DNA from: Acutalibacteraceae bacterium
GTDB taxonomy: Bacteria; Bacillota; Clostridia; Oscillospirales; Acutalibacteraceae
DNA: 64,000 nucleotides
Assembly (NCBI GenBank): GCA_045605125.1
Contig: JAZUPK010000036.1
Span: 4,945-68,944 of the forward strand
Reading direction: 5' to 3'
The position numbers and the translations under genes were made by a program. The notes under the pieces were generated by a model. The model was not told the DNA's origin. It saw nothing but the letters and a program-made list of their open reading frames with translations, and searched no databases. Positions 2,908-49,555 of the stretch are shown here, in pieces. Numbering within the stretch: position 1 is the first letter of the stretch; the number at the start of each line of letters is the position of its first letter.

Positions 2908-3156
2908 ATTACCGCCTCCTTTAATTTATATTCTAATTATACACATAAAGTTAGTAAAATACCAAAAACAATTCAGTTACAAATTATTTCAGCTTTGTAA
3001 TTTTTACGGTTAATTTTTAATGAGAAAATTTACATTTTGTAATTTTTAAAATGCTATATTTTATCTTTTTTATAAATATCCGAACCAAATTTACTGCAAT
3101 ATGCATATATTTGGAACATTTAAATAATTTTTTTAAAATTATTTTATAATTTTTAG

Positions 3157-3185
3157 TTGTATTTACTAAAAGAATATGATATACT
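3157..3185 (+). promoter_or_regulatory. sigma-A-type promoter candidate for the EF-G paralog
   Basis: TTGTAT (3157-3162), 17-nt spacer, TATACT (3180-3185). Lies 40 nt upstream of the TTG start. Confidence 0.4.
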
Positions 3186-3224
3186 AGAGATTGTAAAGAT
3201 ATTCACTTAAAGGAGTGCATCAAA

Positions 3225-5261
3225 TTGAAAGACTATTCACAAAATGCCGTACGCAACATTGCTCTTTTAGGACATGGCGGTTCCGGCAAAACAACATTAG
3301 CTGACGCTATTTTATTTTACGGTAAAGCTACTGACCGTATAGGTAAGATTAGTGACAGTACAACCATTATGGACTTTGATGCCGAAGAAAAGAAAAGAAA
3401 AAATTCAGTATCAACTTCGGTTTACTCGCTTGAAATAGGCAATAGTAAACTTAATATTATAGATGCTCCCGGTCTTTTTGACTTTGCAGCCGGCGTTCAC
3501 GAAGCTTTACAGGTAGCCGATAGTGCTATTATTACCATTTCGGGTAAATCCGGTCTTACCGTAGGCGCTAAGCAATGCTTTGAAAAGGCACGTGCTTTAA
3601 ATAAGAGCGTTGCATTCTTTGTAGGTAAGCTTGATTCTACACACGCTCACTTCTACCGCGTATTGTCAGCATTAGCGGGTCAGTATGGTACACTTATATG
3701 CCCTATTATTATTCCTTATATCGAAAACGAACAGGTAAAATGCTACATAAACCTTATCGATAATAAAGCTTACGCTTGCGAAGGCTTAGAGATTAAGGAA
3801 ATGCGTATGCCCGTAAGCGAAGAAATTGACAATATGAGAAGTATGCTATTAGAAGCTATCGCTACCGTCGATGAATCCTTGATGGAAAAATACTTCGCAG
3901 GTGAAGAATTTACCTGTGATGAAATCATACACGGTCTGGCTATAGGTGTTAAAAACGGCGATATTTGCCCGGTATATTGCGGTGTTCAGCAAAGTGGTAA
4001 TGCCGTTCCTATGATGGTGGATAACCTACTTGACATTCTACCCGCTACCGATGCTTGTACATACACTAACGCCGACGGCGAAGAATGTGCCTTTGATGCA
4101 TCGGGCGAGACTGCACTTTGCGTATTTAAGACAATCGCGGACCCGTTTGTTGGCAAGCTTTCATACTTCAAAGTTTTATCAGGTACTGTTAAAAATGATA
4201 TTCAGCTCATCAATAACCGCACCGGCAATAGCGAGCGTATATCTAAAATAATGTGGCTTAAAGCCGCTAAGCAAGAAGATGCAGCTGCTATTACCGCTGG
4301 TGATATTGGCGCAGTTGCTAAGCTTGGTAACGTTATTACAGGCGATACCCTTTCTCAAAAAGGAAATATTGCCATAGCTAAAATCAATTTCCCCAAACCC
4401 ACCTTATCCGTTGCGGTTTACCCCAAGGCTAAAGGTGACGAAGAAAAAATTGCGGGCGCGTTTAACCGTATGGCTGAAGAAGACCCCACCATCACTGTTC
4501 ATACCGACAAGGAAACCAAAGAACTTATACTCTCGGCTTTAGGCGAACAACACATTGATGTAATAATTTCTCGTTTAAAGAGCAAGTTTGGAGCCGAAGC
4601 AGAACTTAAACAGCCAAAAATTGCATACCGTGAAACTATCCGCAAGCCGGTTCAGGTTCAAGGCAGACATAAGAAACAATCGGGTGGTCACGGTCAGTTT
4701 GGTGATGTTTGGATTAAATTTGAACCTTGCGACAGTGAAGAATTAGTATTCTGTGAAGAAGTATTCGGCGGTGCCGTTCCTAAAAACTTCTTCCCTGCAG
4801 TTGAAAAAGGCCTTCGCGATTCAGCCGTTAGCGGCGTATTGGCAGGCTACCCAATGGTAGGACTGAAAGCAACCCTTTACGATGGTTCTTACCACCCGGT
4901 AGACTCTTCCGAAATGTCCTTTAAGATGGCAGCAAGTATCGCTTATAAAGAAGGTATACCGCAAGCATCTCCCGTGCTTTTAGAGCCTATAGGCACCCTT
5001 AAAGTATTAGTTCCTGATGAAATGCTTGGCGATGTTATTGGTGACATCAATAAACGCCGCGGTAGAATTATAGGCATGAATCCAACTGATAACAAAATGC
5101 AAGAAATTATAGGCGAAGTGCCCATTGCCGAAATGTCTGACTTTTCAACCGCAATGCGTTCTATAACTCAAGGAACCGCAACCTTTACTTTAGATATTGA
5201 AAGATACGAAGAAGTACCTGCACAAATTGCAAGCAAGGTTATAGAAGCAAGCAAAAAGTAA
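3225..5261 (+). CDS. elongation factor G paralog (EF-G2-type translational GTPase)
   Basis: TTG start 9 nt after AGGAG. G1 motif GHGGSGKTTL plus DAPG. EF-G domain IV/V blocks HKKQSGGHGQFGDVW and GYPMVGLKATLYDGSYHPVDSSE. G1 differs from the canonical AHIDAGKTT. Confidence 0.8.
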   Translation: MKDYSQNAVRNIALLGHGGSGKTTLADAILFYGKATDRIGKISDSTTIMDFDAEEKKRKNSVSTSVYSLEIGNSKLNIIDAPGLFDFAAGVHEALQVADSAIITISGKSGLTVGAKQCFEKARALNKSVAFFVGKLDSTHAHFYRVLSALAGQYGTLICPIIIPYIENEQVKCYINLIDNKAYACEGLEIKEMRMPVSEEIDNMRSMLLEAIATVDESLMEKYFAGEEFTCDEIIHGLAIGVKNGDICPVYCGVQQSGNAVPMMVDNLLDILPATDACTYTNADGEECAFDASGETALCVFKTIADPFVGKLSYFKVLSGTVKNDIQLINNRTGNSERISKIMWLKAAKQEDAAAITAGDIGAVAKLGNVITGDTLSQKGNIAIAKINFPKPTLSVAVYPKAKGDEEKIAGAFNRMAEEDPTITVHTDKETKELILSALGEQHIDVIISRLKSKFGAEAELKQPKIAYRETIRKPVQVQGRHKKQSGGHGQFGDVWIKFEPCDSEELVFCEEVFGGAVPKNFFPAVEKGLRDSAVSGVLAGYPMVGLKATLYDGSYHPVDSSEMSFKMAASIAYKEGIPQASPVLLEPIGTLKVLVPDEMLGDVIGDINKRRGRIIGMNPTDNKMQEIIGEVPIAEMSDFSTAMRSITQGTATFTLDIERYEEVPAQIASKVIEASKK

Positions 5262-7194: not shown

Positions 7195-7215
7195 CTATAC
7201 CACTCCTTTCAAAAG

Positions 7216-7242
7216 TTTAGGCGGACAACCGGTCCGCCTAAA
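7216..7242 (-). terminator. hairpin terminator after the PPIase lipoprotein gene, directly upstream of the ABC-F RBS
   Basis: TTTAGGCGGAC / GTCCGCCTAAA stem. On the - strand it is followed by AACTTTTG. Confidence 0.55.
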
Positions 7243-7249
7243 ATAAAAT

Positions 7250-8269
7250 TTAAGAAATTTTTGCGTTTTTCTTTACTAACTCAAATACCTTTTCGCTTAC
7301 AAGTACCATTTCGATATAATACTCGCCGTACTGTTCAATAATATCCGCTCTTGTAACGCTTGAATCTCCACCGCTTGCAATAATTTCCTTAATGGTTTGT
7401 TCTTTTTCTTCATCGGTAATCTTTAATTCTTCCTTATCGAAAACAGCATACCAAACCATTTGCATATCCATAAGCGGCTTAACCTGACTTGTAATCATTT
7501 GTTCCTTAAGTTGTTCAGCTGTTTGACCTGTTGAAGTTAAATACTGCTCAACCGTTGTTTGATAGTTGTTTATAAGAGTATTTTGAAACTGTGCGTGATA
7601 TTTTTTATACAAGAATTCTAATTCTTCCTTTGGATAATCCTTTACCTTAGAAGCATTTAATAATGCTTGCTGTAAAGTTTCAACAATAGCGCGATCTTCA
7701 ACATTAGCTTCATAATCTTCTAATTTTGAGAAGCCTAAGAATGTATAAAAATCCTTCGGTTTTTTAGCTTCGTTAGTTGTAACATAGTTAATTTTAACGG
7801 TGAAAACTACATCCTGACCCTTTAAATCTTCGTTGTGATAATCTTTTGGGAAGGTAAGCTTAAGATCAACCGTACTTCCTATTTCTTTACCAATAAGTCC
7901 TTCTTCAAAGCCATCAATAAAGCTATTAGAACCTATAACTAAGTTATAAGCCTGCGCCGTACCGCCTTCGAAAGCAACGCCATCTTTTTTACCGGTATAA
8001 TCGATGTTAACATTGTCGCCTTCTTTAACCTTACCGGTGTTTTTAGTAACATATAAACCATAGGATTGAACATCACTTGCTATTATGTTTTCACTGGTTT
8101 TCTTAAACTCATCAGATTTTTTATCAACCTTTATGCCCTTATATTCGCCTAATGTAACATACTTACTAAGGTCAACATTATAAAGTTCTCTTTTTTCTTT
8201 TTTAGCACAACCTGCAAAACAAGTAAGCATTAAAATTAAAATTAGCACCAAACTTAAAATTCTTTTCAT
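7250..8269 (-). CDS. lipoprotein with trigger-factor-like FKBP-type PPIase domain
   Basis: Lipobox LTCFAGC. PPIase block GDNVNIDYTGKKDGVAFEGGTAQAYNLVIGSNSFIDGFEEGLIGKEIGSTVDLKLTFPKDY resembles the trigger factor PPIase domain. Confidence 0.6.
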   Translation of the reverse strand: MKRILSLVLILILMLTCFAGCAKKEKRELYNVDLSKYVTLGEYKGIKVDKKSDEFKKTSENIIASDVQSYGLYVTKNTGKVKEGDNVNIDYTGKKDGVAFEGGTAQAYNLVIGSNSFIDGFEEGLIGKEIGSTVDLKLTFPKDYHNEDLKGQDVVFTVKINYVTTNEAKKPKDFYTFLGFSKLEDYEANVEDRAIVETLQQALLNASKVKDYPKEELEFLYKKYHAQFQNTLINNYQTTVEQYLTSTGQTAEQLKEQMITSQVKPLMDMQMVWYAVFDKEELKITDEEKEQTIKEIIASGGDSSVTRADIIEQYGEYYIEMVLVSEKVFELVKKNAKIS

Positions 8270-24799: not shown

Positions 24800-24842
24800 A
24801 AAAGAATAGCACCCGACTTTATTTTCTCAAAAGTCAGGTGCT
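24800..24842 (-). terminator. intrinsic terminator after four-helix-bundle gene A
   Basis: AGCACCCGACTTT (24808-20) pairs with AAAGTCAGGTGCT (24830-42), with one mismatch. On the - strand it is followed by ATTCTTTTT. Confidence 0.7.
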
Positions 24843-24845
24843 AAT

Positions 24846-25193
24846 TTATTTTGATTTAGCAGTGTTGATAGATGATATAAGCATTACTCTTATACTTGTG
24901 CAAACGGTATCAAGTTGTTTATAAGTAATTTCATCTATATAATTTGTTTTATACAAAAGTTCAAGCCAATAACCTGTTTCATTCGACTCTTTAAGAGCAA
25001 TTTGTAGTTTAGAAATAAAATCTGCTTTCCCGTGCGCATATTGTGCTTCGCGTATATTCGCCCCTATTGAAGTTCCACTCCTACCAATTTGGTTAGAAAT
25101 AATATTTTCTTTTTTCAGTTTTAATTCTTTAACTAAATTTATAATAGAAACCGCAAACTCCAAAGACAAATTTCTCAACTTGCTTTCTGACAT
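24846..25193 (-). CDS. four-helix-bundle protein (23S rRNA intervening-sequence protein / Avd-like family), copy A
   Basis: About 115 aa. Family block RSGTSIGANIREAQYA and YWLELL. ATG at 25193 lies 6 nt after GAGGTG and aligns with the copy B start. The ORF-track start at 25223 would include the predicted -10. Confidence 0.75.
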   Translation of the reverse strand: MSESKLRNLSLEFAVSIINLVKELKLKKENIISNQIGRSGTSIGANIREAQYAHGKADFISKLQIALKESNETGYWLELLYKTNYIDEITYKQLDTVCTSIRVMLISSINTAKSK

Positions 25194-25211
25194 CATAATC
25201 ACCTCTTGCAC

Positions 25212-25240
25212 ATTATATAACATTTATCTGTGAAGTGCAA
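25212..25240 (-). promoter_or_regulatory. sigma-A-type promoter candidate for four-helix-bundle gene A
   Basis: On the - strand: TTGCAC (25240-25235), 17-nt spacer, TATAAT (25217-25212). TATAAT-N-AGAGGTGAT-ATG layout shared with copy B (6 vs 7 nt after TATAAT). Confidence 0.45.
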
Positions 25241-25401
25241 GGCTTCCCCTTGCGTGAAATTATGCTACGCACAATGAAGTATTTGCTTCGCAAAAGTGAA
25301 GTAAAGTGTGCCACTCACGCCCACAGGCGCTTCATGATGTACAACATCGCTTCACGCACCAAAGGTGTACTTATCGTGCCGTAAGGCACACTTAGTTCAC
25401 C
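25230..25401 (+). other. ornate repeat-plus-hairpin array A (candidate structured RNA or ssDNA element, function unknown)
   Basis: GTGAAGT-like 7-9-mers (25230, 25254, 25274, 25296) alternate with short GC-rich hairpins. CTTCAT/CTTCAC/ACTTA complements (25330, 25350, 25370, 25390) alternate with hairpins that include GTGCC[GTAA]GGCAC. Colinear with array B on the + strand. Confidence 0.7.
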
Positions 25402-25403
25402 AA

Positions 25404-25437
25404 ATAAAAAAGACACTCTTTCGAGTGTCTTTTTTAT
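25404..25437. terminator. bidirectional intrinsic terminator (3' of tRNA-Lys on -, 3' of array A on +)
   Basis: AGACACTC-TTTC-GAGTGTCT stem-loop. A-run on one side and T-run on the other. Confidence 0.85.
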
Positions 25438-25438
25438 T

Positions 25439-25514
25439 TGGTGATCCATCGGGGATTCGAACCCCGGACACCTTGATTAAAAGTCAAGTGCTCTACCGTC
25501 TGAGCTAATGAATC
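25439..25514 (-). tRNA. tRNA-Lys (anticodon UUU), CCA encoded
   Basis: The reverse complement folds as a cloverleaf. Acceptor GATTCAT/ATGGATC. D arm GCTC..GAGC. Anticodon arm CTTGA-CTTTTAA-TCAAG. T arm CGGGG-TTCGAAT-CCCCG. 76 nt long. Confidence 0.9.
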
Positions 25515-25570: not shown

Positions 25571-25846
25571 TTAATTTTTATAAATTTTTACAAAAACAAT
25601 CAATATTACCGCTATTTGCAGTAAAATAATTACAGGCAAACCTAGCATAAATTTAGTATGCTTTGTTTTGTGGCGTATTATGCGCATTGTAATATACATC
25701 GCCACCGCCCCGCCTATTACTGACAATAAAAGCAAGTTTTTTTCACTTATTCTTTGTAAATCTTTTTTTGCGGCAAATTTATCGTAAATGCAAATTATCA
25801 CACTAACTACGCTAATTGCCGCTAAATAATATAAAAAATATTCCAT
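25571..25846 (-). CDS. DUF1294 family small membrane protein
   Basis: 91 aa. Pattern YDKFAAKKDLQRISEKNLLLLSVIGGAVAMYITMRIIRHKTKHTKF is typical of DUF1294. Confidence 0.7.
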   Translation of the reverse strand: MEYFLYYLAAISVVSVIICIYDKFAAKKDLQRISEKNLLLLSVIGGAVAMYITMRIIRHKTKHTKFMLGLPVIILLQIAVILIVFVKIYKN

Positions 25847-25884
25847 TTTTAACTCTCTTTTTGTTTTTTACTATTTTACCACTA

Positions 25885-26577
25885 TTACACAACTTTTTCA
25901 ATTTGTTTTTTAAGCTTGTTTATTATCCGCTTTTCAAGGCGCGATATATACGATTGTGAGATTCCTAACGTGTCGGCAACCTCCTTTTGAGTATATTCAT
26001 CGTAGCCGTTCATACCAAAGCGCATTTCCATAATCTGCTTTTCGCGTACGGGAAGTCCCTTTACAAAACGGTTTAAAAGTTGTTTTTCATCCTCCTGCTC
26101 TACACCTCTGCCGATTTCATCACCATCGCTACCCAAAACATCAGATAATAACAACTCGTTTCCGTCCCAATCAACATTCAAAGGCTCATCAATAGAAATT
26201 TCGTGCCTTTGAGAAGAGCTTTTGCGCAAAAACATTAAAATTTCATTCTCAATACAGCGCGAAGCGTAGGTTGCAAGCTTTATATTTCTATCGGGACAAA
26301 AAGTATTTACCGCTTTTATAAGACCTATTGTACCTATAGAAATTAAATCTTCAATATTAGTATTAGTGCCTTCAAACTTGCGTGCAATATACACTACAAG
26401 CCTTAAATTATGTACTATTAAAGAATCGCGAGAAGATTTATCGTTTTTATTTACTAGCTCTACTTCTTCGTTGTATGTAAGCGGAGCGGGCAAAATTTCG
26501 GGCCCGTTAATATAAAAGGTTGGCTTTATTACGCCTAACTTTACAAGAATTTTATTAAAAATATTTTTTAGTGTCAT
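25885..26577 (-). CDS. sigE: sporulation sigma factor SigE (pro-sigma-E)
   Basis: [38 protein letters not shown] and [18 protein letters not shown] match SigE rather than SigK. Lies directly downstream of spoIIGA. ATG at 26577 is 5 nt after AAGGTGA. Confidence 0.85.
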
Positions 26578-26582
26578 ATCAA

Positions 26583-27413
26583 TCACCTTAAAATTTTTGG
26601 ATTTATAATTGCATTATAGTCTTCATTAAGCGGTACTTTAGATACCGCCAAAATAGGTTTTTTAAGAGGAATTTTTTTATCATCACATTCCACCAAAGCC
26701 TCTTCACATCGAAAACCGTCTAGACTACTGTACCCCGAAACAGTATTACAGGGCAAAAGCCTATAAAGGTGAGCGTGCTTATTATTTTCTAAAGAATCTA
26801 CATCACCAAATAAATACGCCACCTTAGATTTATCTGCTATAATAATTTCACTATCCGAAAAAGCATCTTCTAACGAATTTCCGGTATCAGCAATAGCTAA
26901 AAGTATAATCTCCCTACCATTTGCAGTAACCGAAATCTCGCACCGCGAAGCTAACGGACTGCTTTTTTTGAAGATTTTATAGCATAAAGTAAAAACAATA
27001 TACCCCACGGTGGAAAAAATAACCAACATAAGCGGCGAAATATTTAAATAAACTACCGAATTATTTATAACCATACCGTAAGGCGTGAATACCGTCCACA
27101 AAGCGAACATTATTCCGCCGTATCCACAACTGACAACTAAAAACACCACTACGTTTTTTAAATATTTTTTTACACCCAAAAACTTATAACAAACAAACGT
27201 TAAGAGAAAAGCAATGGAAGTTTTATATAAAAATTCTACTATTATTTTTTGTTGCGGTAAATATATGTAAATACTTGAAATACCACCTAAAAGTGCTGCT
27301 AAAACGGTCCTATAGGTTGTAGTCTTTTCTCCCGTGATTTTTGCTGTAGCCAAAAGCAAAAAGTAATCAACCAAGGTGTTTAGGAATATTAGCACATCCA
27401 TATAAACAATCAA
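26583..27413 (-). CDS. spoIIGA: sigma-E processing peptidase SpoIIGA
   Basis: Polytopic N-terminal half. DTGN aspartic protease motif ([11 protein letters not shown]). TTG start 5 nt after AAGGTGA. N-terminus [13 protein letters not shown] resembles Bacillus SpoIIGA. Confidence 0.85.
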
Positions 27414-27510: not shown

Positions 27511-27712
27511 GGCGTTGTACCCGTAAGGATACAACGCCAGTTTTATTCGCCAAGGCGAGTTTTATTGCTACGCAGTGATATTTGAACTTCGTTCAAGTGA
27601 TATTCGCTTCGCGAGTTTAAGGGCGAATAAAATAACACTTAAACCGCAAGGTTTCAATATCACTATTGCCGAAAGGCAATAATATCACTCCAACTTTAGG
27701 AGGAATATAACT
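27511..27712 (+). other. ornate repeat-plus-hairpin array B (candidate structured RNA or ssDNA element, function unknown)
   Basis: 5' hairpin at 27511-38. Then AGTTTTATT x2 and AGTGATATT x2, each followed by a short hairpin (two capped CTTCG). Then GCAA- and GAAA-capped hairpins alternate with AATATCACT x2, the exact reverse complement of AGTGATATT. AATATAACT (27704-12) pairs 8/9 with AGTTTTATT. Confidence 0.75.
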
Positions 27713-27740
27713 TGAAAGTCAGTCTGTTTTTATGTATAAT
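27712..27740 (+). promoter_or_regulatory. sigma-A-type promoter candidate for four-helix-bundle gene B
   Basis: TTGAAA (27712-17), 17-nt spacer, TATAAT (27735-40). Then AGAGGTGAT and ATG at 27760. Confidence 0.5.
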
Positions 27741-27759: not shown

Positions 27760-28110
27760 ATGGCTGATAGTATTTTAAGAGATAAAGCAAAAGAATTTGC
27801 AAAGAAAGTAGTTTTTCTTTGCCGTGATATGAAAGCAAATCATAAAGAATCGGTTTTAATAAATCAACTACTTCGCTCATCAACCTCGATAGGAGCAAAT
27901 TTGCACGAGGCTCAATACGCTCAAGGAACTAAAGATTTTATTTCAAAACTTGAAATAGCCCAAAAAGAGTGCTACGAAACTGAATATTGGTTAGAACTTC
28001 TTTTTGAGACGGGTTGTATGACCGAAGAAATATACAAAGATATTCAAAACGAATGTGGTTCGATTCGCAGAATGTTGATTTCTTCGCTTAAAACTATAAA
28101 ATCAAAATAA
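27760..28110 (+). CDS. four-helix-bundle protein (23S rRNA intervening-sequence protein / Avd-like family), copy B
   Basis: 116 aa from ATG 27760, which lies 6 nt after GAGGTG. RSSTSIGANLHEAQYA and YWLELL. C-terminus MLISSLKTIKSK parallels copy A. An in-frame TTG at 27712 with an AGGAGG RBS is an alternative start. Confidence 0.75.
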   Translation: MADSILRDKAKEFAKKVVFLCRDMKANHKESVLINQLLRSSTSIGANLHEAQYAQGTKDFISKLEIAQKECYETEYWLELLFETGCMTEEIYKDIQNECGSIRRMLISSLKTIKSK

Positions 28111-28123
28111 GGAGCTTTATATT

Positions 28124-28501
28124 ATGAGTCAAAGAAAAAGATTAGAATATTTGATAATCACTTCTTGTGTATTGTTGTCAGGATTTATCATTTATGGTTT
28201 TGTGGGAAGTATTCAGCCACTAATTAACGATAGTAAAGTCGCTTCGTTTTTTGCATTTGGTGCTTTGGGTGGCTTGGGTTTTAGTCTTATTTTATCAACC
28301 ATAATTTTAAGTTCAAGATTTTTTCAAAAAAGAAGTTTAATATTTAAAATAATTGCGGCTGTTCTTTGGCCTATTACATTTGCTTGTTGTTTTTATGTTG
28401 GTGTTTTTATGTATATCCCCTATGGAATATACAATGTTGTAATGTTGATTAGAAAAGAGCCTCAAGTTGTAGAAAGTTCCGATGACGATTCAAATGAATG
28501 A
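28124..28501 (+). CDS. hypothetical four-TM membrane protein
   Basis: AAGGAG RBS 13 nt after the stop of gene B. Four hydrophobic helices and an acidic C-terminus. No family recognised. Confidence 0.5.
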   Translation: MSQRKRLEYLIITSCVLLSGFIIYGFVGSIQPLINDSKVASFFAFGALGGLGFSLILSTIILSSRFFQKRSLIFKIIAAVLWPITFACCFYVGVFMYIPYGIYNVVMLIRKEPQVVESSDDDSNE

Positions 28502-49363: not shown

Positions 49364-49471
49364 ATATAAAGTTAAAATATATCTTTAAACACGGTGCTGT
49401 GACGCCGGCAAGATTGTTATATGGTTTTTAATAAGTATATCCCCAAGGGGTTATACCGTTTATTGTCATAT

Positions 49472-49500
49472 ACACCTTGCCTTACGGCAGGGTGTTTTTA
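49472..49500 (+). terminator. leader (attenuator) terminator upstream of pyrC
   Basis: ACACCTTGCC-TTAC-GGCAGGGTGT stem-loop followed by TTTTTATT, 56 nt before the pyrC ATG. Upstream GGCAAGATTGT (49407-17) mimics the 3' arm and could form an antiterminator. Confidence 0.6.
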
Positions 49501-49555
49501 TTAAGTAATCGCAGCATATATGTATGCTAAAACCTAATCGAAAGGCGGTAAAATA

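Follow-up and report, generated by a model that had tools for sequence, protein, structure and literature searches.

The question addressed here is what the array of short repeated words and small hairpins is that precedes each of two genes for four-helix-bundle proteins of the family PF05635, on which strand it is to be read, and whether it belongs to the neighbouring gene. Both genes (A and B) lie in a 64,000-nucleotide stretch of an Acutalibacteraceae contig (JAZUPK010000036.1), hereafter the window. The original prediction regarded the array next to gene A (array A) as a second copy of the array next to gene B (array B), colinear with B on the plus strand, opposite in orientation to its own gene, and suited to giving a discrete small RNA (sRNA) that ends at a terminator. 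The results described below established that array A is a divergent dyad array of the Gut-1 type (Rfam RF01706), that it is read with its gene and that its position is conserved.

All modules that had been listed for array A were present where they had been placed. On the plus strand four GTGAAG-like words start at 25230, 25254, 25275 and 25296, and four CTTCAC-like words at 25330, 25350, 25369 and 25390; each of the eight is followed by a small hairpin. GTGAAGT occurs at 25230-36 and 25296-302, TGAAGTA at 25275-81, CTTCAT at 25330-35, CTTCAC at 25350-55, ACTTATC at 25369-75 and ACTTAGT at 25390-96. Relative to dinucleotide shuffles the two strands of the array folded with z-scores of -9.8 and -8.1. 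A covariance model (R1) was built from 33 gene-oriented related arrays, with the window excluded; it comprises a closing helix (P1) and six hairpins and was scored with filters off. R1 recognized array A at 25228-25409 on the minus strand with 98.2 bits (E 1.5e-25). The fold scores of both strands and this independent match placed array A far beyond chance.

Read on the minus strand, array A consists of a gene-distal arm, a centre and a gene-proximal arm. The distal arm (25330-25396), as deduced from the sequence and its alignment to the R1 consensus, runs ACTAAGT, hairpin hp1 (GTGCC-TTAC-GGCAC), GATAAGT, hp2, GTGAAGC, hp3, ATGAAGC. The central hairpin hp4 (25318-25329), which reads CGCC-CACA-GGCG on the plus strand, has the family consensus GCCTGCGGGC. 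In the proximal arm (25230-25303) the words are ACTTCAC, ACTTCAT, ATTTCAC and ACTTCAC, with a hairpin whose loop is of the GAA or GNA type ahead of each. The 5' strand of P1, AAGTGTGCC (25385-25393), pairs with GGCACACTT in the array centre (25304-25312) as a 9-nt inverted repeat of 100% complementarity (I2), and it has an alternative partner in the local GGCAC of hp1. The words are spaced by 20, 20 and 20 nt in the distal arm, as opposed to 24, 21 and 21 nt in the proximal arm.

Array B (27527-27713, plus strand) has the same orientation as gene B. Its words are AGTGATATT and AATATCACT, it contains the inverted repeats I5, I7 and I8, its closing helix pairs 27541-27551 with 27622-27632, and a terminator-like hairpin (27511-27538, inverted repeat I4) marks its distal end. 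R1 gave only 22.2 bits for the plus strand of A as compared with the 98.2 bits of its gene strand, and for B 23.6 bits on the plus strand, which is the gene strand, as compared with 9.9 bits on the minus strand. In both arrays the arm farther from the gene is the one enclosed by P1, the terminator is found at that same end and the orientation is that of the downstream PF05635 gene. The position of P1, the arm-specific word spacing, the place of the terminator and the R1 scores thus all match the minus strand of A with the plus strand of B: on the chromosome the two arrays mirror each other, and each has the direction of its own gene. This upheld the view that A represents the same type of element as B, present a second time with another repeat word, and the observation that repeat and complement had changed together, which recurred across about 60 related arrays. 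The proposed plus-strand colinearity of A and B had to be abandoned, as had the supposed opposition of A to its gene, since array and gene had one fixed relative orientation in the two window copies as well as in 66 or more related loci. No third copy was found within the window.

The colinearity had an understandable origin. Pairwise alignment in both orientations did reproduce it, a crude global alignment giving a z-score of 4.3 for plus/plus and about 0 for plus/minus, but as a guide to orientation the raw alignment was rejected after the mirror symmetry of the element had been measured and the family model had pointed the other way. On the gene strand distal modules consist of a word followed by a hairpin with a TTC, TNC or TTGC loop, and proximal modules of a hairpin, with a GAA, GNA or GNRA loop, followed by the complement. 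GCTACGC was found in 6 of 59 distal and in no proximal arms, GCGTAGC in 10 of 59 proximal and in no distal arms, and CTTCG in 53 of 59 distal arms. The misleading signal arises because on the plus strand the proximal arm of A mimics the distal arm of B and because generic mini-hairpins are common to both; the apparent plus/plus colinearity is an effect of the dyad symmetry of the element.

The family was defined by 80 loci that the two window proteins retrieved from a genome set with a single representative per species; most of them are from gut Oscillospirales and a few from Victivallales. A clear R1 match immediately preceded the gene, on its own strand, in at least 66 of the 80; in six more the match was partial, cut by a contig end or weak. 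The opposite strand always scored much lower (for example 56 against 169 bits, or 34 against 150 bits). Read in the direction of the gene, the 250 nt upstream resemble each other strikingly. First comes a terminator hairpin and its T-tract, next a degenerate first word that is fused to hp1, then three word-plus-hairpin modules and a centre; the 3' part of the centre forms P1 with the first word and the 5' half of hp1. Five complementary words separated by three hairpins, an extended -10 element (TGnTATAAT), the ribosome-binding site and the gene follow. The minus strand of A matches this consensus nearly nucleotide by nucleotide, also in the centre GCCTGTGGGCGTGAGTGGCACACTT. Word spacing is typically about 18-20 nt in the distal arm (range 16-28) and about 22-24 nt in the proximal arm (range 20-27). 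In two Victivallales loci (L026, 3696-3900; L069, 4920-5100) the arms are swapped, CTTCAC words coming first and GTGAAG words second; the helix between first hairpin and centre is kept and encloses the distal arm. Arrays nearly identical to B were found upstream of orthologues of gene B (L327, L329, L332). The first word of B-type arrays (AGTTTTATT) is at the same time the U-tract of the upstream hairpin, and this hairpin moves with the cassette into other genomic contexts (L327).

The bidirectional terminator at which array A had been said to end does lie there, and it is the terminator of a tRNA gene. It occupies 25397-25444, where inverted repeat I1 has perfect 22-nt arms (25397-25418 and 25423-25444) with the GC core GACACTC/GAGTGTC and an A-tract and a T-tract on both sides. 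The tRNA-Lys gene (anticodon UUU; 25439-25514, minus strand) was found by ARAGORN and by the Rfam tRNA model (71.5 bits), and has its 3' end towards the array. A tRNA or transfer-messenger RNA (tmRNA) terminator thus directly precedes A; upstream of B there is the hairpin only. Of the 73 loci for which sufficient sequence was available, 55 have a tRNA or tmRNA gene on the same strand that ends 150-450 nt upstream of the gene; 13 tRNA identities and tmRNA are represented, and in several further loci one cassette lies in between. The stem of the tRNA-Lys terminator extends past the A/T tracts and pairs with the 3' end of the tRNA (TCACCA with TGGTGA), as also in L009 and L029.

Conservation of the secondary structure was assessed in an alignment of 33 arrays (A3), with 500 shuffles and slid registers as controls. 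The seven hairpins were paired to 81.8% as compared with 56.1% after shuffling, with covariation of 0.53 as compared with 0.18. For P1 the values were 94.5% and 76.6%, and 0.50 and 0.21; for nested word-to-word pairs they were 93.5% and 82.7%, and 0.28 and 0.12. None of the 500 shuffles reached the observed pairing or covariation, and the slid controls were all far below. Up to five pair types occurred at hairpin positions. Only two positions were variable in the word-to-word pairs, and the register of word pairing is for this reason not assignable. Both hp1 and P1 covary, and they share one 5' strand; the two alternative pairings of this strand are therefore both conserved. The alignment-based ratio of G-U to A-C was 60:47 in distal hairpins, 15:10 in proximal hairpins, 25:15 in P1 and 12:28 in words; a count made with a hairpin finder differed from it in showing opposite preferences in the two arms. 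Single-base word variants showed no clear bias to wobble-compatible changes.

Such conservation could be expected if the array acted alone, without a dedicated protein, as a structured RNA of the sense strand that is made by read-through from the tRNA or another upstream gene or as part of a 5' untranslated region (5' UTR). The alternatives P1 and hp1, together with pairing between distal and proximal words, would then provide a ladder of junctions, and the RNA could be a leader, a processing or stability element, or a read-through insulator, similar to the RNase III stems on either side of PF05635 reading frames in the intervening sequences (IVSs) of 23S rRNA. Covariation of hairpins through several pair types, conservation of the mutually exclusive hp1 and P1, and the word complementarity that was kept despite the swapped arms of the two Victivallales loci are in agreement with this explanation. 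However, G-U was not favoured over A-C, unlike what is usual in transcribed structures, and a single RNA does not need mirror-image loops (TNC/TTGC in one arm, GNA/GNRA in the other). On the whole evidence, including that given below, we regard a sense-strand RNA acting alone as unlikely, although it is the rival to be taken most seriously.

The transcription signals bear on this explanation in both directions. A sense promoter between array and gene was conserved (mean score 11.4, 8.4 after shuffling), and 40 of 59 loci scored 11 or higher. In the window the promoter of gene A (25212-25240, minus strand) has its -35 element TTGCAC at 25240-25235, overlapping the last hairpin and word of the array, and an extended -10 element, TGtTATATAAT, at about 25222-25212. 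The promoter of gene B (27712-27740, plus strand; TTGAAA, 17 nt, TATAAT) had 11 of 12 matches in the promoter scan. That the array abuts the -35 element of the adjacent gene was therefore correct for both copies. In these 40 loci, A and B included, a strong terminator precedes the array and the promoter follows it, which places the array outside the mRNA and argues against a sense-strand RNA. In the remaining third no promoter intervenes and the array borders directly on the ribosome-binding site (for example L002, L023, L028, L046, L124 and L332), so that there it must lie in the 5' UTR of a read-through transcript, which favours a sense-strand RNA.

A discrete plus-strand sRNA, antisense to gene A and extending from about 25225 to the terminator at 25404-25437, fared worse. 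Over the 59 loci the best antisense sigma-A-like promoter scored like shuffled background (8.47 and 8.41, respectively) and reached 11 in a single locus, and no conserved promoter was found on either strand ahead of the array. The sRNA is thus left without a promoter. Two weak promoter-like sites in the window (25172-25199 and 25187-25216) could serve it, but both have 9 of 12 matches, which is no better than shuffles. The bidirectional terminator has a good U-tract on the plus strand, and the best Gut-1 match of A is on that strand; the latter is explained by the mirror symmetry of the arms. This is the least supported of the readings considered, and we hold it to be highly improbable.

The relation to Gut-1 was examined with the Rfam model, whose gathering score is 50 bits. 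Array A gave 39.7 bits at 25228-25307 (plus strand; 35.1 bits when the whole window was searched), and array B 38.1 bits at 27538-27608 (plus) and 30.1 bits at 27627-27713 (minus), all below this threshold. At 25228-25307 and 27538-27608, both on the plus strand, the alignments covered the full length of the model (positions 1-77), with the three hairpins and four UGAAAU-like words of Gut-1 in place; the minus-strand match of B was likewise a full-length one. Matches above the threshold were found elsewhere and coincided with the distal arms of arrays made of GTGAAA words; in L325 and L326 such arrays are located directly upstream of PF05635 genes, and in L041 and L065 the proximal arm was also matched above threshold, on the opposite strand. 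R1 in turn matched A as well as the loci whose distal arm passes as Gut-1 (L325, L326, L043, L041, L065, L047). The distal-arm matches and the opposite-strand proximal matches indicate that Gut-1 is one arm of a dyad-symmetric element; the original Gut-1 seed alignment already has complementary words downstream of the modelled half. That Gut-1 is classed in Rfam as an RNA favours a sense-strand RNA. Because its matches come as opposite-strand pairs, they are poor evidence for an sRNA gene on the reported strand.

An association of a different kind was found between the words and the proteins encoded next to them. The 62 gene-array pairs compared fell into word classes ATGAAG (23 pairs), GTGAAG (16), ATGATG (12) and GTGATG (10), plus B itself (GTGATA). 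Word base 1 was related to residue 4 of the protein in 62 of 62 pairs (Ser with G, Asn or Asp with A) and to residue 7 in 58 of 62 (Arg or Lys with G; Ser, Ala or Val with A). Word base 5, which is A or T, was related to the core residues 55, 58, 65 and 110 in all 62. Base 1 and base 5 are found in all four combinations, so that the two associations combine freely. About nine words carry both bases, and swapping of modules alone is therefore insufficient: at least once all the words must have changed in concert to suit a part of the protein. The N-terminus of protein B is MADSILR and that of protein A is MSESKLR if translation starts at 25193; Ser4 and Arg7 also occur in independent loci, with GTGAAA arrays in L325 and L326 and with GTGATA arrays in B, L327, L329 and L332. 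In the AlphaFold2 (AF2) model residues 4 and 7 are on the first turns of helix 1, at the same end of the bundle as the 53-58 loop and residue 110. Pairing of Arg or Lys with G and of Asn or Asp with A is the textbook pattern of direct readout. A sense-strand RNA acting alone leaves this co-variation unexplained.

Taken with the observed architecture, orientation, covariation and genomic context, the co-variation between protein and word leads us to suggest, at somewhat less than even confidence, that the array is a recognition array for the cognate pentameric PF05635 protein. The words would be the recognition sites of the toroidal homopentamer encoded by the adjacent gene; an arm holds about five of them, four or five distally and five proximally, in line with its five subunits. 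Each hairpin could fold out and thereby bring neighbouring words together, and the complementary arm might compete for the words by base pairing. By binding at or over the -35 element, or next to the ribosome-binding site in the relatives that have no promoter there, the protein could control or insulate its own cassette. The bound form would probably be folded and single-stranded, because word spacing is variable and unphased and because an arm may have either hairpin spacers or contiguous words, the one type replacing the other. Candidates for this form are a read-through or 5' UTR RNA and melted DNA by the promoter, and candidates for the outcome are autoregulation, insulation against tRNA read-through, and mobility of the cassette.

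The array might instead be an ordinary operator, in which a regulator binds phased sites on B-form double-stranded DNA upstream of the promoter and the hairpins are incidental. The place of the array between terminator and -35 element, which the last word overlaps or abuts, the dyad symmetry of the sites and the absence of a strand bias would all suit an operator. Yet what is strongly conserved in the spacers is pairing, through as many as five pair types at a position, and not sequence; the variable word spacing is not in phase with the DNA helix, and the contiguous-word and hairpin-spacer arms replace each other. We consider an ordinary operator very improbable.

Not all arrays are found before a PF05635 gene. 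In the same orientation they precede a lipoprotein gene (L041, L043, L065), a 104-aa open reading frame (ORF; L054), a gene for a HAD-like hydrolase (L008) and one for a membrane protein (L059), and in L072 and L033 the array is followed by a terminator only. In L203 (IMGVR_UViG_3300029305_011259) a GTGAAG/CTTCAC array (7198-7434) lies between large-terminase-like and portal-like phage genes, in the orientation of these genes and with no four-helix-bundle gene nearby. The position between cistrons in this phage contig and that between ORF and terminator in L072 are transcribed ones, a further point in favour of a sense-strand RNA. In scans of metagenome and viral collections for GTGAAG-N-GTGAAG-N-GTGAAG, chance matches and coding repeats predominated by far: complementary words were nearby in only 6 of 240 loci, of which 4 matched R1, too few for an unbiased estimate of the frequency of gene-less arrays. 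The loci L102 (600-830) and L223 (520-680) contain inverted sets of contiguous GTGAAG-type words without hairpins around a centre of about 90 nt, promoter-like in L223, and may represent an unrelated operator or a hairpin-less relative.

Several loci showed duplicated or rearranged units. L054 carries terminator, array and promoter as a near-identical direct repeat (3100-3330 and 3740-3960), the first copy driving the unrelated 104-aa ORF and the second the four-helix-bundle gene. In L046 an array is present on both sides of the gene (3834-3988 and 4343-4497), and behind the second copy come the ribosome-binding site, the gene's first seven codons and a terminator. Whole arrays stand in tandem upstream of the gene in L332 (2593-2781 and 2799-2981, with a third at 3414-3593, 3' of the gene) and in L325 (2046-2235 and 2259-2448). 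The lipoprotein cassette has its own array of GTGAAAT words, a bona fide Gut-1 (L041, 4873-5943; L065, 256-1327; L043, 207-917), and is downstream of the four-helix-bundle cassette in L041 and upstream of it in L065 and L043.

These arrangements would be expected if the array were a DNA site for recombination or mobility at cassette boundaries, like a folded single-stranded attC site of an integron or a composite terminal repeat, by which cassettes are gained, duplicated or shuffled behind tRNA and tmRNA genes. The direct repeats of arrays around genes (L054, L046, L332, L325), the alternating side of the lipoprotein cassette, the frequent tRNA or tmRNA gene upstream, the many loci that end at contig breaks and the covariation without strand bias fit such a site, and the Bacteroides copies described below resemble insertions inside operons. 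Nevertheless, the ORFs downstream of 25 loci looked, by eye, like ordinary housekeeping genes, proteins A and B are only 53% identical, so that the two window copies are not recent transpositions, and neither a target-site duplication nor an empty site was found. A mobility site is in our view improbable. With regard to contig ends, the gene was within 1 kb of one in about a quarter of L001-L080 and close relatives of protein B were mostly on contigs below 2 kb, which suggests breakage of assemblies at the cassettes, owing to multiple copies or to variability. Three further classes were dropped: a type III toxin-antitoxin array (identical direct repeats as units are lacking, and the fold does not resemble that of ToxN), a group IIC intron or IS200/IS605 end (no Rfam match) and a CRISPR-like array.

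Some of the data weigh against the array being the recognition array of the PF05635 protein. Arrays A and B lie between a strong terminator and the gene's own promoter, so that a single-stranded RNA form of them would require read-through of the terminator. There are arrays without an adjacent PF05635 gene, and the G-U and A-C counts show no consistent strand preference. One GC-rich lineage with G-words (L124, L323, L324) has Pro4 and Leu7 in place of Ser4 and Arg7. The co-variation at the N-terminus could in part be a linkage effect; linkage does contribute, since the duplicated unit of L046 spans the array through codon 7.

Inverted sets of words were also found with PF05635 genes in other phyla. 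Bacteroides homologues 98% identical to the protein of PDB entry 2RLD are encoded inside operons for sugar and amino-acid metabolism, one between araD and araA and another between the genes of an aminotransferase and DAHP synthase. There AATTGACA is repeated four to five times directly before the ATG and its reverse complement TTGTCAAT four times after the stop codon (L334, 2437-2497 and 2893-2925; L337, 2474-2500 and 2917-2950), as contiguous 8-nt words without hairpins; in L337 the preceding gene ends within the upstream arm. Words that are contiguous and lack hairpins were likewise seen in L046. Arms that flank an ORF inside an operon agree with a sense-strand RNA. In Coxiella three tandem heptamers are located just upstream of the PF05635 ORF of an IVS (PMC4990558), and a Xanthomonas homologue is described there, in a passage citing Lin 2006, as a toroidal homopentamer. 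Thus inverted sets of short tandem words accompany PF05635 genes in three phyla.

A generalization of the recognition array is possible, and we offer it tentatively: PF05635 genes and inverted word arrays would form a widespread, undescribed class of self-recognizing mini-cassettes in which a pentamer reads about five words of its own. These cassettes may reside behind tRNA and tmRNA genes in Clostridia, in operons in Bacteroides, and as IVSs in 23S rRNA. The N-terminal turn of helix 1 may read base 1 (Arg or Lys plus Ser with G, Asn or Asp with A) and the region of the helix 2-3 loop base 5, and the Gut-1 "RNA" may be one arm of the binding site. To our knowledge, PF05635 (23S IVS protein, Avd-like) has been without a known function outside diversity-generating retroelements (DGRs) since 1993, and Gut-1 has been an RNA motif without function or gene association since 2010. 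In the literature found on Gut-1, PF05635/TIGR02436, the IVS protein and the Bacteroides word an association of arrays with genes is not described. Two orphans are linked here, and the link is regular, with a fixed genomic layout in dozens of gut species and residue-to-base co-variation. If the generalization is true, the 30-year-old IVS protein family would have its first ligand and a simple recognition code. Binding, if confirmed, would explain why PF05635 genes travel with repeats in rRNA, tRNA and operon contexts, and might yield a compact, programmable word-recognition module. A direct test is feasible with two small proteins and two 180-nt arrays, all of which are in one window.

The genes themselves and their surroundings can be described briefly. 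Gene A (24846-25196, minus strand) matches PF05635 (3.3e-26) and TIGR02436 (3.2e-30); the solved structure nearest to its product is 2RLD (E 8e-31, five chains), and the AF2 model has four helices with a pLDDT of 94.6. A terminator follows the gene (24800-24840, minus strand), with the stem CACCTGACTTT/AAAGTCGGGTG, a G-U pair on the minus strand and a U-rich tail. Gene B (27760-28110, plus strand) is also a PF05635/TIGR02436 four-helix-bundle gene. The PADLOC models of anti-phage defence and the PHROG models of phage proteins had no match for proteins A and B. By exact-sequence look-up, protein A and the product of the neighbouring cysK were without any record, and protein B was found on two short contigs only. 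A small membrane or ion-channel gene of varying family often begins within a few bases 3' of the four-helix-bundle gene (window, 28124-28501; L327, 3361-4071; L026, 4356-4731; L069, 4325-4747) and looks like cargo in the same transcription unit. Between the two cassettes (25571-27413) the translations, judged by eye, showed a DUF1294 gene and an operon whose products resemble sigma-E and the SpoIIGA protease; on this judgement the host would be a spore-forming gut bacterium of the Clostridium kind. A PyrR binding site was matched at 49378-49502 (plus strand) with 52.3 bits, just under the Rfam threshold of 54. A palindrome of about 50 nt at 2235-2285 was matched by one miRNA model on both strands with 36-39 bits, well below threshold, and is probably a hairpin or terminator.

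Among the known systems Gut-1 is the closest. For this motif occurrence in human gut metagenomes is all that Weinberg et al. (2010; PMC2864571) state. Arrays A and B have in common with it three small hairpins parted by a repeated UGAAAU-like word and an origin in human or animal gut Clostridia, and arrays that pass as Gut-1 share with them the R1 match and the same genomic layout. They differ in the word, GTGAAAT in Gut-1 as compared with GTGAAG in A and GTGATATT in B. Moreover, Gut-1 was described as a stand-alone sRNA without gene association, whereas here it is one arm of an element composed of terminator, array, promoter and PF05635 gene and provided with a closing helix.

The IVSs of 23S rRNA (Ralph & McClelland 1993; PMC4990558) share the protein family, the attachment to a gene for a stable RNA and the complementary repeats. 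An IVS is located inside the rRNA gene, whereas array A follows a tRNA terminator and is succeeded by the gene's own promoter, and Rfam detected no rRNA in the window. The repeats of an IVS surround the ORF and form a 28-bp RNase III stem; in the present elements both arms are upstream of the ORF and the helices, 6-11 bp long, are interrupted by hairpins. No long terminal inverted repeats enclose the ORF of gene A, the longest helix of array A being 9 bp.

Repetitive extragenic palindromes (REP), bacterial interspersed mosaic elements (BIME) and the attC sites of integrons likewise form intergenic arrays of small palindromes where transcription units end; attC sites are conserved in structure and variable in sequence during evolution. 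REP and BIME consist of near-identical palindromes; here the hairpins differ, within one array as well as from array to array, and only the words of 6-8 nt recur. No gene for a REP-associated tyrosine transposase or an integrase was noticed nearby.

The Avd protein of DGRs is a homologous four-helix-bundle pentamer (PDB 4DWL). In the DGR of Bordetella phage Avd is known to act together with an adjacent structured RNA. That it works with a structured RNA beside its gene is also documented (PMC10053308). No reverse transcriptase was recognized among the ORFs at 22-31 kb, a profile search of all window ORFs not having been made, and no template or variable repeats were seen near genes A and B in the window.

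A likeness in the mode of action alone may be drawn to two proteins of unrelated fold. TRAP, a ring, reads RNA at 11 GAG/UAG triplets; the omega repressor of pSM19035 reads DNA at WATCACW heptads that are contiguous. In either case the number of short words suits the oligomer, and autoregulation results. By analogy, the PF05635 pentamer could be an oligomer that reads a matching number of words and thereby regulates its own synthesis, with the difference that its words are parted by hairpins that would fold out and are accompanied by a complementary arm.

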